Source: Flavobacteriales bacterium (GTDB lineage: Bacteria > Bacteroidota > Bacteroidia > Flavobacteriales_F > PHOS-HE28). Taken from it: DNA of 64,000 nucleotides. The stretch lies in assembly GCA_046329105.1 (NCBI GenBank), contig JAXLVH010000007.1, positions 128,515 to 192,514 of the forward strand, read 5' to 3'. The notes below the pieces were generated by a model. The model saw only the letters and a program-made list of their open reading frames with translations, had not been told where the DNA came from and did not search any database. A program made the translations under genes and the position numbers. Numbering within the stretch: the first letter of the stretch is position 1; each line of letters starts with the position of its first letter. This document shows, piece after piece, positions 2,537 through 59,557 of this stretch.

Positions 2537-3007
2537 GTGATCATGGAGAACATGACAAACGATCCAGTGAAGCGCGACTGGAACATGAACGGGCTCTATG
2601 ATCTTGGGGAAACGATCTCCGTGGTGGCAGAACAAGCTGGCCGCAAGGTGAACAACTTCAAGGATCTTTGGGTGTGGAAGACCGGCATGGAACTGCTGAA
2701 GCCGGTCTATCAGGTCACACGTAAGCTCCCCAAGGAGGAACTCTATGGATTGACGTCTCAGTTACGTCGGGCTGCTGTATCCGTGCCGAGCAACATTGCC
2801 GAAGGGTGGGGTCGGAACAAGAAGGGATATCTACTGCTTGGCCTGAGCTACTCGCGGGGCTCTCTTCATGAGATCGAGACGCAACTCCTCGCCTGCGTTG
2901 AGCTGGAATTCCTGAAGCATGAGGACATTCAACCCCTGCTGGACAAGATCGCCGGAATAAGCACCGGACTTCTCCGATTCATGAATAACCTGGAGTCGAA
3001 GCGCTGA
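2537..3007 (+). CDS. four-helix bundle protein (TIGR02436, 23S rRNA intervening-sequence protein family)
   Basis: Family-typical motifs FKDLxVW and LTSQLRRAAVSVPSNIAEGWGR. GC is about 52% against ~66% in the flanks. The N-terminal extension is uncertain and the true start may be internal. Confidence 0.8.
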   Translation: MIMENMTNDPVKRDWNMNGLYDLGETISVVAEQAGRKVNNFKDLWVWKTGMELLKPVYQVTRKLPKEELYGLTSQLRRAAVSVPSNIAEGWGRNKKGYLLLGLSYSRGSLHEIETQLLACVELEFLKHEDIQPLLDKIAGISTGLLRFMNNLESKR

Positions 3008-3049
3008 GGCCACTTTATCACCACCCTCACCATTCTCACCACCCTCACC

Positions 3050-38444: not shown

Positions 38445-38605
38445 TATTGCAATAGACCTCCGTCCCAATTGCTCAGGGGAATGAAAAAGACTTGTCACGG
38501 TGAGCCTGCCGAACCGGTCCTTGCTTCGCCGTAGCGGCTACGCAAAGGCGCGGTCGATGGGCTCACCGTGACATTCAATAGGAATTACGACGGAGGTCGA
38601 ATGAA
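38445..38605. repeat. palindromic dispersed repeat (R1 family, copy A): TGTCACGGTGAGCC...GGCTCACCGTGACA nested inside outer inverted repeat GACCTCCGTC/GACGGAGGTC
   Basis: Perfect 14-bp inverted repeat. The internal segment GCGCCTTTGCGTAGCCGCTACGGCG is homologous to the tails of copies B and D. Confidence 0.7.
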
Positions 38606-41398: not shown

Positions 41399-41724
41399 CG
41401 GGCCGTCAACGTGGCCTGACCACCGCATGCCAAGCTCGCGAAGATCAACGTAACTTCGGCTTTCATGGGTTCCCTGTTCCCTGTTCCCTGTTCCCTGTTC
41501 CCTGTTCCGGTTCCAAGCAGCAGATCATCTACGCTCATTCGATAAAGACCTGCCAGCTTGATGGCCCGTTCCGCGCTCAGTTTCACATGCGCGCTTTCCA
41601 ACTCGCTATATGCGGACTGCCCGATGGCCAGCACCTCGGCCAGATCCTCCTGGCTCAGGCCATGTGCCGAACGCAACTCCAGCAAGCGAAGAGCGATGCG
41701 CTTCTGTTCGCGACGATGCTCCAT
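41395..41724 (-). CDS. XRE-family helix-turn-helix protein (putative antitoxin/regulator) with repeat-encoded C-terminal tail
   Basis: HTH LSQEDLAEVLAIGQSAYSELES. The C-terminus GTGNREQGTGNREQGTGNREP is encoded by the heptamer tract. The start is uncertain (Met at 41724 or 41763). Confidence 0.55.
   Translation of the reverse strand: MEHRREQKRIALRLLELRSAHGLSQEDLAEVLAIGQSAYSELESAHVKLSAERAIKLAGLYRMSVDDLLLGTGTGNREQGTGNREPMKAEVTLIFASLACGGQATLTAR
41470..41504. repeat. heptanucleotide tandem repeat (TTCCCTG)x5
   Basis: Five perfect 7-nt units, read directly. They lie inside the 3' coding tail of the HTH gene, ~70 nt upstream of the toxin start. Confidence 0.9.
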
Positions 41725-46870: not shown

Positions 46871-47908
46871 ATGAAACGCTGGACCCTCTTCCCGCTCGCC
46901 ATCGCCATAGGCTCGTCTCTTCTGGCACAGGACACGGCACGCGACAGCACCGGCCTGCCCGGCGATCAATTCAACTTGGAAGGCGCGCTCGACCTCTTCA
47001 AGCGGAACCTTGAGATGGAGGGCTTCGAGAAAGCGCTGAACACCGACAGCAACCGGGTGAACAACCTGGACCTGGACGGCAATGGCCGGATCGACTACGT
47101 GCGGGTGGAGACCCAGCGCGAAGGCAACGCGGCCTATGTGGTGATGAAGGTGGCGGTGAGCGCCACCGAGAGCCAGGACGTGGCGGTGATCGCCATTGAA
47201 AAGACCGGCGAGGAGAGTGCCATCCTCCAGATTATCGGCGATGAGGCCCTGTACGGACCGGATGCGATCGTGGAGCCATACGCCGAGGAACAGGGCATGG
47301 CCCCTTCCAAAGGTCCTTCGGCTCCTGAATTGCATGGCTTCTTCGTCACGGTGAACTGCTGGTTCTGGGAGCCGGTGCCCTGGTTCTTCAGCGACCGCTG
47401 GTACGCCTATCACTCACCTTGGTATTGGGGCTACTATCCGCCGTGGTGGAACACATGGGCCCCGTATGACTGGTTCATCTGGCACGGCTGGTGGGGCTAC
47501 CATCACCACTGGTACCGGCCCTGGGGTAGTTGTCGTGTGGGCTCCGCACAAGCGTTGTACCTGCCCCGTCGGGCGCAGAGTGCAATCGTTCGGGAGCGGT
47601 ACCGGGATGTGCGTGCGCGCTATGAGAAGAACCCCGCCCGCCTGCAGAAGGGACCGGCTGACGGCTTGCAGAAAGAGCGGCATGGGAAAGATGCGGTACG
47701 AGAGCGGCCGGTGACCCCGGATCGCCCTCAACGGGCGAAGGCTCCGGAAGCCCGCCCCAGCAAGGAACCGGGCAAGAACGGAGTGGCCCGGCCCGGCAAA
47801 GCACCACGCCAGCCGGAGGCCCGGCCCGCGCGCAGGCCAGCTAAAGCGCGACCCGCACCCGCGCCGCGGCCGACCCCACGTCCTTCGCCACGGCCACGCG
47901 GCAGATAG
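46871..47908 (+). CDS. secreted protein with Trp/Tyr-rich core and Pro/Arg/Ala-rich C-terminal tail
   Basis: Signal peptide, then a WFWEPVPWFF...WYWGYYPPWWNTWAPYDWFIWHGWWGYHHHWYRPWG segment, then PRPxPRP repeats. Confidence 0.5.
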   Translation: MKRWTLFPLAIAIGSSLLAQDTARDSTGLPGDQFNLEGALDLFKRNLEMEGFEKALNTDSNRVNNLDLDGNGRIDYVRVETQREGNAAYVVMKVAVSATESQDVAVIAIEKTGEESAILQIIGDEALYGPDAIVEPYAEEQGMAPSKGPSAPELHGFFVTVNCWFWEPVPWFFSDRWYAYHSPWYWGYYPPWWNTWAPYDWFIWHGWWGYHHHWYRPWGSCRVGSAQALYLPRRAQSAIVRERYRDVRARYEKNPARLQKGPADGLQKERHGKDAVRERPVTPDRPQRAKAPEARPSKEPGKNGVARPGKAPRQPEARPARRPAKARPAPAPRPTPRPSPRPRGR

Positions 47909-48008
47909 GTCCTCCACATACGGGGATAACAGGAGGCTCCCGGTGGTCGTGATCACCGGGGGCCTTCCGCTTTCCGTACTACCCCTTCTTCAGGAAAGCG
48001 TCCCATCC
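47897..48008. repeat. ~112-bp direct repeat, copy 1 (duplicate of thiL 3' end plus terminator hairpin)
   Basis: About 92% identical to 48420..48532. Re-encodes GWDAFLKKG* and the CCCGGTGGTCGTGATCACCGGG hairpin. Confidence 0.8.
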
Positions 48009-48184: not shown

Positions 48185-48330
48185 GTTGCAGCGCTTCGGC
48201 AGGCTCAGCGTGACAGCTCATCGGGAGTGTTCAAGAAAAGTGCTCTTGGACACTCATGTCCCCACTGTCACGCTGAGCCCGCCGACTGCGCCTATGCGTA
48301 GCCGCTCCGGCGAAGTGAGGAGCGCCATAC
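48185..48330. repeat. palindromic dispersed repeat (R1 family, copy B): GGCTCAGCGTGACAG-N48-CTGTCACGCTGAGCC + tail GCCGACTGCGCCTATGCGTAGCCGCTCCGGCGAAGTGAGGAGCGCC
   Basis: Perfect 15-bp inverted repeat. Roughly 85% identical to copy D. Confidence 0.8.
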
Positions 48331-48419
48331 TCCCGTTCCCGGCGCTCGTTCCGGATCTTGAACACAAACACTTGCCCTCACCGATCATCTCGGGTGTCCC
48401 GATCGCTGAAAACAGGGCA

Positions 48420-48532
48420 GCGCGGCAGATAGGTCGTCCACATACTGGAATATCAGGAGGCTCCCGGTGGTCGTGATCACCGGGGGCCTTCCGCTTTCCG
48501 TACTACCCCTTTTTCAGGAATGCGTCCCAGCC
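48420..48532. repeat. ~112-bp direct repeat, copy 2 (authentic thiL 3' end and terminator)
   Basis: See 47897..48008. Confidence 0.8.
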
Positions 48533-49691: not shown

Positions 49692-50018
49692 ATGATCAAG
49701 GTGAGCGAGACCGCCAAAAGCGAGGTCACCAAATTGCTGGGCATGGAAGGACGTGGGCCTCAGCACTTCGTACGCGTGGGCGTGAAGGGCGGCGGCTGTT
49801 CCGGCCTGATGTACGACCTGACCTTCGACGACCAGATGAAGGACGGCGACAAGGTCTTTGAGGACAACGGCGTGAAGGTGGTGGTGGACAAGAAGAGCCT
49901 GCTCTACCTGCTGGGCACCACGCTCGACTTCAGCGGTGGTCTCAATGGCAAGGGCTTCCAGTTCGTGAACCCCAACGCCAGCCGGACCTGCGGGTGTGGG
50001 GAGAGTTTTTCGATATGA
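49692..50018 (+). CDS. sufA: HesB/IscA-family Fe-S cluster insertion protein
   Basis: 108 aa with the C-terminal CGCGESF motif. Confidence 0.9.
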   Translation: MIKVSETAKSEVTKLLGMEGRGPQHFVRVGVKGGGCSGLMYDLTFDDQMKDGDKVFEDNGVKVVVDKKSLLYLLGTTLDFSGGLNGKGFQFVNPNASRTCGCGESFSI

Positions 50019-50032
50019 ATCGATACAGTATT

Positions 50033-50139
50033 GAGAATGGTGAAAATGGAGAGAAAGTGATATGCCCTGGACGATGATCAACACCTGTAACCTGTAGTCC
50101 CACTTTCTCACCGCCTTCACCACCCTCACCGTTCTCACC
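50033..50139. repeat. cargo-less copy of the GGTGA-rich / CACC-rich complementary bracket motifs
   Basis: Left arm GAGAATGGTGAAAATGGAGAGAAAGTGA and right arm CCACTTTCTCACCGCCTTCACCACCCTCACCGTTCTCACC are separated by 38 bp. Same architecture as the brackets around 2537..3007. Confidence 0.6.
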
Positions 50140-50148
50140 CGCATTCCT

Positions 50149-51597
50149 ATGGCACAGGACACCGACGATATCCTCCGTGAGGTCACCGAAAAGGAGTACG
50201 CCTACGGTTTTGTCACGAACATCGAGAGCGAGAAGGCCGAGAAGGGCCTGAACGAGGACATCGTACGCTTCATCAGCAAGAAGAAGGAAGAGCCGGAGTG
50301 GATGCTGGAGTGGCGCCTCGAGGCCTTCCGGCTCTGGCAGAAAATGGAAGAGCCCACCTGGGCGCATGTGAACTATCCGAAGATCGATTACCAGGACGCC
50401 TATTACTACAGCGCGCCCAAAAAGAAACCGCAACTCAACAGCTTGGACGAGGCCGACCCCGAGCTGGTGAAGACCTTCGAGAAGCTGGGCATCTCCTTGG
50501 AGGAGCAGAAGCGCCTTGCCGGTGTGGCCGTGGATGTGGTGTTCGACAGCGTGAGTGTGAAGACCACTTTCCAGAAGACATTGAAGGAAAAAGGGATCAT
50601 CTTCTGCTCGTTCAGCGAGGCGGTACGGGAACATCCTGATCTGGTAAAGAAGTACATCGGCAGCGTGGTGCCACGCACGGACAACTACTTCGCCGCGCTC
50701 AACAGCGCCGTGTTCAGCGATGGCAGCTTCTGCTACATCCCGCCAGGAGTACGCTGTCCCATGGAGTTGAGCACCTACTTCCGCATCAACGAGGCCATGA
50801 CCGGCCAGTTCGAGCGCACCCTGCTGATCGCCGACGAGGGCGCTTACGTGAGCTACCTGGAAGGATGCACCGCCCCCATCCGCGATGAGCACCAGTTGCA
50901 CGCCGCCGTGGTGGAACTGGTCGCGCTGAAAGACGCGGAGATCAAGTACAGCACCGTCCAGAACTGGTACCCCGGCGACAAGGACGGCAAGGGCGGCATC
51001 TACAATTTCGTCACCAAGCGTGGCCTTTGCCTCGGCGATCGCAGCAAGATCAGCTGGACGCAGGTTGAGACCGGCAGCGCGATCACTTGGAAGTACCCGA
51101 GTTGCGTGCTCAAAGGCGACCACAGTGCGGGCGAGTTCTATAGCGTGGCCGTGACCAACAACCGCCAGCAGGCCGACACGGGCACCAAGATGACCCACAT
51201 CGGCAAGGGCACCAAGAGCACCATCGTGAGCAAGGGCATCAGCGCGGGCTTTTCCAACAACAGCTACCGTGGACTGGTGAAGATCGGTCGCGGCGCGAAA
51301 GGCGCACGGAACTTCAGCCAGTGCGATTCCCTCCTGCTCGGCGACCGCTGCGGCGCACACACCTTCCCGTACATCGAGAGCGAGAACCCCAACGCCATGG
51401 TGGAGCACGAGGCCACCACCAGCAAGATCGGTGAGGACCAGATCTTCTACCTCAACCAGCGCGGCATCGAGACCGAAAAAGCGGTATCACTCATCGTGAA
51501 CGGCTACTGCAAGGAGGTGCTGAACCAACTGCCGATGGAGTTCGCCGTGGAGGCGCAGAAGTTGTTGGCGGTGAGCTTGGAGGGGAGCGTGGGGTGA
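50149..51597 (+). CDS. sufB: Fe-S cluster assembly protein SufB
   Basis: 482 aa, conserved throughout as SufB. Confidence 0.95.
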
Positions 51598-51610
51598 TCG
51601 GCCAACGTTC

Positions 51611-52054
51611 GTGACCGTGTTCCGGCCGACGGCTGTCGCCATTTCATCCTATGCGGCCATCGGCCCCCAATGGTCATCTGCCTGGAACTGCTCGAGGACC
51701 GAGCGCCGCAACTTTGTCAAGGCCTTGCACTTGGCTGTCTCCGCCGAATTGGCACTGGGAGGCTCTATGTCGAATACAGTGGGTAGTCGAACTTGAGCTT
51801 ACCGGTGAGGAAGTATATCACGTTGATGATGTTTTGGATATTCAGGTAGCCCCTTGCCCTTGCTCTGGCGAGTTGGACCTTTGAATTGATCCCTTCGCGG
51901 ATCCCGTTGGAGAAGTGGTACTTGGTGTGGTTGGTGATGCCAGCCCAATACTGGGCAACGGTCTTCGCGAACTTGACAAAAGGGCCAATGGCTGCATCGG
52001 CGGCCAAGTCACACCAGAAGGCCAGGAAGCTCCTGTTTTAACTAAATGGGTCAC
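51611..52054 (-). mobile_element. ISL3-family insertion-sequence remnant
   Basis: It contains the transposase C-terminal fragment listed next. No intact transposase or clear terminal inverted repeats were found. Confidence 0.55.
51765..52007 (-). pseudogene. ISL3-family transposase, C-terminal ~80-aa fragment
   Basis: ...ITNHTKYHFSNGIREGINSKVQLARARARGYLNIQNIINVIYF matches the conserved ISL3 transposase C-terminus (NxxxEGxNxKIKxxKRxAxGYRN). The N-terminus is absent. Confidence 0.6.
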
Positions 52055-52177
52055 CCAAAGTCGATACGGAAGGTTTTGAGCAGTAGTTGTTGGTCTTGGG
52101 TCTTGGCCAGGATCCTGGTCTGGGAGCGGCCTGAAGCCTGGTCATGGATGGTGATGCCATAGACCATTGCGAGGCAT

Positions 52178-52420
52178 TCAAGGCTCCGCGTCAGCAATGG
52201 CGTGGCCTCATTGAAATCTGCCGAAGCGCTTCGACGGGCTCAGCGTGACATTTCAGGTGCCGCGTCGGCAAGAACGCGACCTCATTGAAACGGTGTGTGG
52301 CGATGTTCCCACGGAACATGGGCTCCACGTCAGCAATCGTATGGCGTCATTGAAACCCGTCGAAGCGGTGAGCTTGCCGAACCGTCGACGGGCTCAGCGT
52401 GACATTTCGGGCTCCACGTC
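52178..52420. repeat. ~139-bp tandem repeat (about 2.1 copies) ending in GGCTCAGCGTGACATTTC
   Basis: Units begin near 52181, 52320 and 52410 (GGGCTCCACGTCAGCAAT...CATTGAAA...CGACGGGCTCAGCGTGACATTTC). They share the R1 core GGCTCAGCGTGACA. Confidence 0.7.
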
Positions 52421-52472
52421 TTTTGTCCATGAAGGCCTTTCCGTTGATCATGCGCCCGATCGGTGGACGCCT

Positions 52473-54953: not shown

Positions 54954-55085
54954 GGCCGGCGGACTTCACGGTTCGGTGGGCTCGCCGCGACACGCCTTTG
55001 TGATCATCCAGGGCGATCGGCATGGAGAAGCATCCAATGAACGCCCCGCGGGATATCGGCGGGGCGTTCGCGTTCACCTGCTTCC
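54954..55085. repeat. ~131-bp direct repeat, copy 1 (duplicate of arsC 3'-flank/terminator)
   Basis: About 88% identical to 55423..55553. Contains a strong hairpin GAACGCCCCGC-gggatatcg-GCGGGGCGTTC. Confidence 0.8.
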
Positions 55086-55274: not shown

Positions 55275-55410
55275 TCAGGGCAGGCTCGCTCAGCGTGACA
55301 GTTCATAGGGAGTAATAGAACAGTGCTCGTGGACACCCATGACCCCACTGTCACGCTGAGCCGGCCGACTGCGCCTATGCGTAGCCGCTCCGGCGATGCG
55401 AGGAGCGCTA
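55275..55410. repeat. palindromic dispersed repeat (R1 family, copy D)
   Basis: GGCTCGCTCAGCGTGACAG-N45-CTGTCACGCTGAGCC + GGCCGACTGCGCCTATGCGTAGCCGCTCCGGCGATGCGAGGAGCGC. Confidence 0.8.
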
Positions 55411-55422
55411 CAACAAGCCGGT

Positions 55423-55553
55423 ATCGGCGGACTTCACGGTTCGAGGGGCTCGTCGGGACACGCCCTTGTGATCATCCTGGGCGATCGGCAAGGAGGTGCA
55501 TCAAATGAATGCCCCGTGGAATATCGGCGGGGCGTTCGCGCTCACCTGCTTCA
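55423..55553. repeat. ~131-bp direct repeat, copy 2 (abuts the arsC stop)
   Basis: See 54954..55085. Confidence 0.8.
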
Positions 55554-59361: not shown

Positions 59362-59557
59362 GGAACATCCTCACCACAGAGGCACAGAGGACACAGAGAA
59401 AGACCACATGAAGCGGCAAGGAGCGGATCAGCGAGTGCGAGTTGCATTTCTCGGTGTCTCCGTGCATCTGTGGTGAACACGAATTGAACAATGGCCCCAG
59501 CAGCCCAAGCGCATTCCTCCGTGCCCTCTGTGCCTCTGTGGTGAAAAGCATTCCAGC

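Follow-up and report, generated by a model that had tools for sequence, protein, structure and literature searches.

A probable intervening-sequence-like hairpin bracket lacking an open reading frame between sufA and sufB of a Flavobacteriales bacterium, and its kinship with the repeat brackets of PF05635 genes

PF05635 is a functionally uncharacterised domain encoded in intervening sequences (IVSs) of 23S rRNA, which RNase III cuts out of the transcript with no ligation (bioRxiv 10.1101/2024.02.27.582315). Its proteins, with 2GSC as a representative structure, are reported to resemble Avd in sequence and structure (PMC10053308). A seemingly separate kind of element was catalogued by Rehm et al. 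in 2015, namely, convergent arrays of short repeats, with the heptamer GGGAATC in Xanthomonas and GGGGA(T/C)T in Nostoc, to which the heptanucleotide tandem repeats of Calothrix, cited in the same work, may be added (PMC4692102). In Xanthomonas there are 70-75 GGGAATC pairs per genome, always convergent and mostly located between co-oriented genes; the arrays are capable of forming stem-loops and vary in length between close relatives, and no function has been assigned to them (PMC4692102). Here we analyse a gene-less hairpin located between sufA and sufB, at positions 50033-50139 of a 64,000-nucleotide (nt) stretch of Flavobacteriales bacterium DNA (assembly GCA_046329105.1, contig JAXLVH010000007.1, positions 128,515 to 192,514; hereafter the window). 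We favour, with a probability of roughly 0.6, the reading that this feature is an IVS-like hairpin bracket that lacks an open reading frame (ORF) and is co-transcribed with the suf genes. Its membership in a class of brackets made of two complementary tandem arrays of a short unit is very likely. The organism is uncultured, and the isolate names MBR_AS and STAS suggest activated sludge as the habitat of such genomes.

The spacer between sufA (49692-50018, + strand; PF01521, E = 5.7e-19) and sufB (50149-51597, + strand; PF01458) is 130 nt long (50019-50148, + strand). A first-pass annotation, made from the sequence alone, had described a GGTGA-rich and a CACC-rich arm here, and this description is accurate except that the arms are separated by 39 nt, not 38. 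The 5' arm (50033-50060, + strand, 28 nt; GAGAATGGTGAAAATGGAGAGAAAGTGA) contains no C and consists of about three 9-nt units, GAGAAT GGTGAAAAT GGAGAGAAA GTGA. The loop (50061-50099, + strand) includes AACCTGTAG, resembling the motif CACC[C/T]GTAG of hairpin-less spacers. The 3' arm (50100-50139, + strand, 40 nt; CCACTTTCTCACCGCCTTCACCACCCTCACCGTTCTCACC) is nearly devoid of G and opens with CCACTTTC, followed by four TCACC-led 9-nt units of the TCACCNNNN type, the last of which is truncated. The arm types are GGTGANNNN on the 5' side and NNNNTCACC on the 3' side, both with a period of 9 nt, and the base counts are 12 G and 0 C in the 5' arm against 2 G and 23 C in the 3' arm. According to the inverted-repeat search, the 28-nt arms are 79% complementary, and the + strand RNA of the hairpin folds at -33 kcal/mol (z = -3.6), with 1 of 200 shuffles folding as well. 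The arm pattern CACTTTNTCACCNNNNTCACCNNNNTCACC (CACTTTNTCACCN4TCACCN4TCACC) has two matches in the window, at 3011 and 50101, and was found in none of 100 shuffles.

The first of these two matches belongs to a gene-bearing bracket, with which the sufA-sufB copy shares its unit repertoire. There, a four-helix-bundle gene (2543-3007, + strand; PF05635, E = 7.3e-31; TIGR02436, E = 2.4e-29; protein identical to P0001) is located between sufS and sufE. It is preceded by a 5' arm (2492-2522, + strand; GGTGAAAGTGGAAATAGTGGTGAAAAAGTGA) composed of GGTGAAAGT GGAAATAGT GGTGAAAAA GTGA and followed by a 3' arm (3010-3049, + strand) of four TCACC units that abuts the start of sufE. The closest solved structure to the encoded protein is 2GSC (XCC0516; E = 2.6e-20), and the domain scan of the four genes adjoining it identified sufD, sufS, sufE and a DUF59-type gene. 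Exact matches of 23-24 nt connect the sufA-sufB arms with the PF05635 brackets of four genomes, those of the window, L021, L032 and L038 (E-values of 1e-6 to 1e-9), which bears out the original suggestion that the site carries the sufS-sufE bracket motif minus the four-helix gene. The two sites are 46.6 kb apart, with sufD-sufS-sufE at the start of the window, because the operon is split: in place of sufC, sufB is followed by short repeats and, on the - strand, a remnant of an ISL3-family transposase (51600-52440). In relatives (L021, L027 and L032) the operon is continuous and reads sufA-[hairpin]-sufB-[PF05635]-sufC-sufD-sufS-[PF05635]-sufE. The second PF05635 gene of L021, between sufB and sufC, has arms of the GTTACG/GTTGACG type (L021:1858-2380), and L027 and L032 also have a PF05635-like gene at this position. 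Between sufD and sufS, L021 carries a CGCGACGA array (L021:4579-4628) and L032 a gene-less hairpin of CACAGAG type (L032:5508-5640).

Among conspecific contigs, the PF05635 gene is kept at sufS-sufE in 20 out of 20. The 5' arm of this bracket is invariant in all of them, and the 3' arm has 3, 4, 5 or 6 units depending on the strain, corresponding to spacers of 33, 42, 51 and 60 nt. Such differences in steps of 9 nt point to clean 9-nt slippage, and arms of the GGTGA family thus change length in 9-nt steps.

We scanned one genome per species, 185,579 species in total, with the arm pattern. The scan returned 14 loci, 9 of them from Flavobacteriales or Bacteroidota metagenome-assembled genomes (MAGs; 10 of the 14 records), with both the length and the units of the arms varying among loci. 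In two other Flavobacteriales species (L027 and L032) the same gene-less hairpin occupies the sufA-sufB spacer, so it is inherited at this position in at least three species. The 5' arm is identical at 27-28 of 28 positions and the 3' arm at 38-40 of 41 in L032 and L027. When the window, L032 and L027 are compared with one another, the arms agree at 65-68 of 69 positions (93-100%), whereas the fourfold-degenerate sites of sufA and sufB are only 61-69% (about 64%) identical (binomial p of 5e-9 to 2e-12). The loop, by contrast, is 63% identical to that of L027, a neutral-like value (p = 0.6). A drifting loop between arms held far above the neutral expectation is the pattern of a constrained stem, and we consider it quite likely that the sufA-sufB hairpin is a transcribed stem under such constraint.

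The spacer itself was further compared among conspecific contigs encoding an identical SufA and in lineages whose SufA is 88-95% identical. Two conspecific contigs (L002 and L006) share the sufA-sufB spacer of the window. Eight others, with flanks 97-98.4% identical, have a wholly different hairpin, CACCACAGAGGCACGGAGCGCACAGAG...CTCTGTGTCCTCCGTGTCTCTGTGGTG (the CACAGAG allele), which folds at -66.6 kcal/mol. This allele contains one or three extra tandem 82-nt copies of the loop and 3' arm, their number varying by strain (L001:3328-3695, also L003, L005, L007 and L010; shorter in L004, L008 and L009). Since each 82-nt copy ends in GAAGCATTCATG, the start context of sufB is duplicated along with it. 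Hairpins of CACAGAG type are also found in the sufA-sufB spacers of L142 and L152, whereas L135 has a hairpin of GACGCAGAG type and L148 one of CGACGCGA type. In L134, L136 and L021 the spacer has no periodic arms and only a small GC hairpin, GTCGACCC..GGGTCGAC. No ORF was found in the sufA-sufB spacer in the approximately 10 lineages examined. Judging from these comparisons, the sufA-sufB spacer is a hotspot for such hairpins.

The segment that is replaced in the conspecific strains corresponds to positions 50019-50140: homology ends at the sufA stop codon and restarts at 50141. The CACAGAG allele of the window's species matches that of L142 at 113 of 121 positions, although the flanking genes of the two are 81% identical and their fourfold sites 60%. 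The alleles of the closer pair, L142 and L152 (fourfold sites 72%), are identical at only 85 of 121 positions. A likeness that exceeds both that of the flanks and that of the closer pair shows that the allele was transferred laterally. At -4 and -13 of sufA, as well as at +16 of sufB, the bases of the recipient strains are donor-like, and in L004 the converted tract is longer (-79 to -97); the flanks beyond are the recipient's own. Site-specific mobility or transposition was considered as the cause of the swap and rejected in favour of homologous recombination, because the tracts of donor-like single-nucleotide differences vary in length and intrude into the genes by anything between a few and about 100 nt. 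Homologous recombination in the ends of the flanking genes thus carries whole spacer alleles from one lineage to another.

To see how general the bracket is, we sampled 80 diverse PF05635 loci from metagenomes and scored the 70 with enough flank by the best inverted repeat between 250 nt upstream and 250 nt downstream of the ORF. The median score was 32, compared to a mean of 17.1 for mismatched upstream/downstream pairs, and 47 of the 70 loci exceeded the 95th percentile of this control (40 of 70 the 99th). In a positional control using same-size intervals from the same contigs, 23 of 34 loci were above the 95th percentile (Mann-Whitney p = 2.7e-12). Similar repeat brackets therefore surround about two thirds of PF05635 genes sampled from many environments, and the arms sought at other four-helix-gene loci are indeed present. 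Tandem Repeats Finder (TRF) detected a G-rich array upstream of PF05635 genes and a complementary C-rich array downstream, with a period of 7-9. In nearly all cases the arms consist of a 7-9-nt unit repeated in tandem, the unit itself changing from one locus to the next, for example AGTAGGGC x11, AGATGTC, CAGTGGG, AGGCATT, AGGGACC and GGCACGGA. Cargo and arms co-diverge, with period 9 and GGTGA-like units for the related proteins P0001, P0014 and P0038 and other units for distant paralogues.

The brackets have a fixed polarity. Among the 70 PF05635 loci (from L039-L118), supplemented with those of the window, L021 and L022, G outnumbers C in the 5' arm at 46 of the 46 loci that are informative (3 ties; GC skew +0.51, p = 3e-14). 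This polarity does not depend on the strand, since a G-first hairpin remains G-first when reverse-complemented. The upstream neighbour is encoded on the same strand at 28 of 34 PF05635 loci, and none of 40 tested loci lies within an rRNA gene.

The general brackets also provide a link to the published heptamer repeats. Repeat #15 of Rehm et al. is positioned between bccP (XCC0517) and XCC0516 and overlaps the start of the latter, a gene listed there just as 'conserved' (PMC4692102, supplementary table). Since XCC0516 is the protein of PDB entry 2GSC, to which the PF05635 protein of the window is closer than to any other solved structure, the heptamer repeats and PF05635 brackets are the same phenomenon. 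The connection was not made in that study, whose text and supplements contain neither 'intervening' nor 'S23' (PMC4692102), and we found no description of the PF05635-bracket link in the literature searched on PF05635, TIGR02436 and GxxExxY. IVSs and convergent short-period repeats are kinds already known; the valuable part of the finding is the general link between PF05635 and the brackets.

How closely does the sufA-sufB hairpin follow each of these systems? With 23S rRNA IVSs the brackets share the cargo family, which was named after the IVS, a long stem formed by two flanks that encloses the element, a host transcript that tolerates the insertion, the coexistence of ORF-less and ORF-bearing forms, and a sporadic distribution for which horizontal transfer is suspected (bioRxiv 10.1101/2024.02.27.582315). 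At the sufA-sufB site the 28- and 40-nt arms pair to give the enclosing stem, and the PF05635 ORF is optional, being absent from this copy and present in the sufS-sufE copy with the same arm units. Unlike IVSs, the feature is positioned between protein-coding cistrons and not in an rRNA helix, and the brackets are made of short-period units in tandem, the G-rich array invariably coming first. As in the convergent repeats of Rehm et al., two intercistronic tandem arrays of a 6-9-nt unit face each other with the G-rich one first. The sufA-sufB unit differs in being 9 nt long and in lacking any stretch of three G (GGTGA and GGAGA), so the G-quadruplex reading put forward for the heptamers (PMC4692102) is not applicable here. 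As for Avd, which serves diversity-generating retroelements as an accessory protein, the likeness is limited to the cargo of the sufS-sufE bracket.

Two further classes of small elements invite comparison. Repetitive extragenic palindromic (REP) sequences, together with bacterial interspersed mosaic elements (BIMEs) and REPINs, are short extragenic palindromes that are dispersed intergenically and transcribed with operons. A minority of REP copies flank a gene of one protein family, the REP-associated tyrosine transposases (RAYTs), and most are gene-less; a given genome has a conserved REP sequence, which the HUH transposase recognises. The brackets resemble them in being dispersed intergenic palindromes, some of which flank one gene family. 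However, the arm sequence of brackets varies by locus and is internally periodic, and the enclosed gene encodes a PF05635 four-helix bundle or a PD-(D/E)XK protein (PDDEXK_3) rather than an HUH transposase. Like MITEs (miniature inverted-repeat transposable elements), the sufA-sufB element is small and non-coding, has inverted termini and is polymorphic between strains. In contrast to MITEs, no target-site duplication was found at the flanks CGATACAGTATT / CGCATTCCTATG or at the other two sites, and homologous recombination in the genes on either side, rather than transposition, accounts for the differences between strains. The termini also appear to vary from copy to copy. The window contains 2 copies of GGTGANNNN-type arms.

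Based on these comparisons, we propose the following scenario. The hairpin would be transcribed within the sufA-sufB mRNA, as suggested by the promoter and terminator scan, in which neither a promoter-like nor a terminator-like site came up at the hairpin; CGCATTCCTATG comes next after the 3' arm, unlike the GC-rich stem plus T-run of an intrinsic terminator. Together with the same-strand upstream neighbours of most PF05635 loci, this makes co-transcription plausible. The RNA would then form an interrupted stem of about 28 bp, which RNase III might cut as it does in 23S rRNA IVSs; by that analogy, processing of the sufA-sufB stem is possible, and we put it forward tentatively. The cut would separate the sufA and sufB cistrons and leave the stem halves at the new RNA ends, which could explain how an insertion is tolerated inside an essential operon. 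As to the origin of the hairpin, its arms probably arose around DNA that was already in place, through expansion of repeats and copying from one arm to the other, and are not the relic of a gene that was lost. The loop looks like native spacer: CACC[C/T]GTAG is common to hairpin-less spacers and the 3' end of the loop, and CCACCCGCATTCC is common to these spacers and the outer edge of the 3' arm.

Several observations weigh against this scenario. Of the two strands of the sufA-sufB copy, it is the antisense one, not the mRNA strand, that has the better fold, the - strand of the 136-nt spacer reaching -48.8 kcal/mol (z = -4.0). We rejected this as a general rule, because mismatches in 45 brackets divide into 85 sense and 96 antisense wobble-type ones (p = 0.46). 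The same counts nevertheless reveal no sense-strand wobble preference, and transversions are as common among the mismatches, so there is no signature of an RNA strand and upkeep at the DNA level is possible; template switching may contribute to maintenance. In addition, the arms of the three species are kept in sequence, without compensatory changes, and homogenisation with other GGTGA arrays could therefore mimic selection. Finally, with none of the tested PF05635 loci in rRNA, the analogy with 23S IVSs is confined to cargo family and stem architecture.

Of the alternatives, an intercistronic RNA hairpin selected by the host, that is, a REP/BIME-like mRNA stabiliser or translational insulator that tunes sufA versus sufB and has no tie to the four-helix gene, seems unlikely to us. 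It would account for the strictly intercistronic position, for arms that three species have kept much more alike than their synonymous sites and for the fact that every lineage examined has some spacer hairpin, even where periodic arms are missing (L134, L136 and L021). Yet the arm units are those that bracket the PF05635 gene in the same genomes, conspecific strains swap in an unrelated hairpin sequence, and the spacers of related lineages have four different arm types or no periodic arms. Such variety implies that the spacer needs no specific sequence, as one would expect of a generic structure or a tolerated passenger more than of a tuned regulator. Contrary to one first-pass suggestion, the element is not specific to suf operons, given that arms of the same type also occur upstream of unrelated genes and that a hairpin of another type is present in a resistance-nodulation-division (RND) efflux operon of the window. 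Nor is the motif a feature of all intergenic regions, the 64 kb containing two pattern matches and four repeat-array sites. It is quite unlikely that the hairpin is instead a mere by-product of DNA metabolism, in which arrays expanded by slippage are copied across by template switching (quasi-palindrome correction) and persist as neutral or selfish sequence with no RNA role. The 9-nt copy-number polymorphism among strains, the lack of a sense-strand wobble bias and the resemblance of arm edge motifs to native spacer (CCACC before GCATTCC) all agree with such an origin, as do the solo arrays without a partner (window 41469-41508, L029, L034 and L036). But neutral decay would be expected in that case, and the identity of the arms is far from the 64% seen at fourfold sites; moreover, the invariable G-rich-first polarity and the association with one gene family need a directional cause beyond slippage.

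The first-pass annotation had also offered an empty target site or the footprint of a lost cargo, with the four-helix gene inserting into the loop or having been deleted from it. We regard this as very unlikely, even though equivalent spacers do alternate between the two states: in the RND adaptor-pump spacer the window has no gene, whereas L022 has a PF05635 gene there. L022 and L033 furthermore have an arm-cargo-arm-loop-arm layout, in which the cargo would be lost by recombination between the two direct 5' arms, and what stayed would be exactly a gene-less hairpin. Against a landing site, for which we found no direct support, stand the absence of any ORF from the sufA-sufB spacers and the retention of the gene at sufS-sufE in every conspecific contig, and the co-divergence of cargo and arms argues against an ORF hopping alone into pre-existing hairpins. 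The footprint version finds no support in the loop, which yielded no remnant of a PF05635 ORF in blastx and blastn-short searches against PF05635 genes and proteins, and whose native-looking short motifs argue against a deletion. The probability of a chance low-complexity inverted repeat unrelated to the sufS-sufE site is virtually negligible. The arms are indeed of low complexity and imperfectly complementary, but the shuffles, which contain no match to the arm pattern, the fold z-score, the conservation of the arms and the hairpin kept in orthologous spacers of two further species (L027 and L032) refute it, so that the initial impression that two such sites would hardly arise by chance was correct. 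An IVS-like bracket without an ORF, co-transcribed with the suf genes, thus remains the reading we prefer.

The link bears on a large family. PF05635/TIGR02436 'four helix bundle proteins' are among the commonest uncharacterised families in Bacteroidota, cyanobacteria and soil bacteria, and our homologue search gave at least 7966 matches at E <= 1e-5 among the 8000 candidates listed. So far the family has been known functionally only as a passenger of 23S rRNA IVSs and a relative of Avd, whereas the short-period convergent repeats of Xanthomonas and cyanobacteria were catalogued without explanation; here the repeats are tied to PF05635 as the housing of its gene. Gene-less housings such as the sufA-sufB hairpin appear to be under constraint inside the operon for Fe-S cluster assembly (suf), which could explain why small selfish genes are able to reside between cistrons and cause no polar damage, and the bracket link supplies a rule for genome annotation. 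More broadly and still tentatively, PF05635 (Avd-like) and PDDEXK_3/GxxExxY genes could be the cargo of widespread, undescribed hairpin-bracketed mini-elements inside operons, with arms that are self-made short tandem arrays, obligatorily G-rich first, and with the heptamer repeats of Xanthomonas and cyanobacteria and hairpins like that of sufA-sufB as ORF-less forms. Speculatively, the polarity might reflect how arms are made, namely by extending 3' ends at a break with G-rich repeats copied from a template, perhaps with the help of an Avd-type cofactor. An equally speculative option is that it reflects avoidance of a C-rich, Rho-attracting 5' arm exposed during transcription of the cargo.

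PDDEXK_3/GxxExxY genes (PF13366, TIGR04256) are a second cargo of periodic-arm brackets, with periodic arms at 4 of 7 loci (L033:6960-7530, L046:660-1290 and L129-L133). In L033 the gene is enclosed in a CACAGAG bracket with the layout arm-gene-arm-loop-arm, and in L046 a PDDEXK_3/GxxExxY gene with its own CGCAGAT/ATCTGCG arms replaces a PF05635 gene from about codon 20 on.

The second gene-less periodic hairpin of the window (59371-59544, + strand), that of the RND adaptor-pump spacer, is built of CACAGAGG units and is of CACAGAG type, with 31-nt arms that are 90% complementary, a fold of -45.1 kcal/mol (z = -3.7) and an internal extra copy of the 3' arm at approximately 59444-59477. The PF05635 gene found in the corresponding spacer of L022 is 56% identical to that of the window and has 9-nt arms of GGGAGGTGAAGGAGG type in the layout arm-gene-arm-loop-arm. 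We also considered mini-ORFs in the loops (in the window and L027 the whole loop is taken up by an ATG..TAG frame, and hairpins of CACAGAG type contain ATG..LW-TGA) and dropped them because the frames are inconsistent in the sufD-sufS copy of L032 and the chance expectation is high. Likewise dropped was a 'GCATTC box' after the 3' arms, since the GCATTCC directly upstream of sufB is native leader outside the hairpin and is also present in the hairpin-less spacer of L134. Rfam 15 at gathering thresholds gave no matches, rRNA included, in the whole window. A solo tandem array, (AGGGAAC)x5.7, is located at 41469-41508 (- strand) between two - strand genes, which by eye from their translations read as a helix-turn-helix-type gene and a P-loop (zeta-toxin-like) gene. 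No convincing complementary partner of this heptamer array was found, and it is possibly an unpaired relative of the arms.

Periodic-arm hairpins were also noticed in other settings. At L028:105-215 a GGTGA/TCACC hairpin is apparently in frame within an ORF, whose reading frame would hold because of the 9-nt period; this ORF weakly matches Por_Secre_tail, the C-terminal sorting domain of type IX secretion, with an E-value of 0.0035 that misses the Pfam cut-off. Analogous hairpins occur in a Prevotella MAG (L025:3850-4000; GGGAGNNCT/TTCTCACC units) and in an Acidobacteriota MAG (L037; AAAGCGAAA/TTTTTCACC units). The window contains another dispersed palindrome family, TCGGC(A/G)GGCTCAGCGTGACAG / CTGTCACGCTGAGCC(C/G)GCCGA, which forms REP-like hairpins in several intergenic regions (38493-38573, 48196-48285, 52231-52250, 52385-52404 and 55283-55366). 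Two pairs of direct repeats are also present, one of 120 nt with 91.7% identity (47889-48008 / 48413-48532) and one of 128 nt with 89% identity (54957-55084 / 55425-55552).

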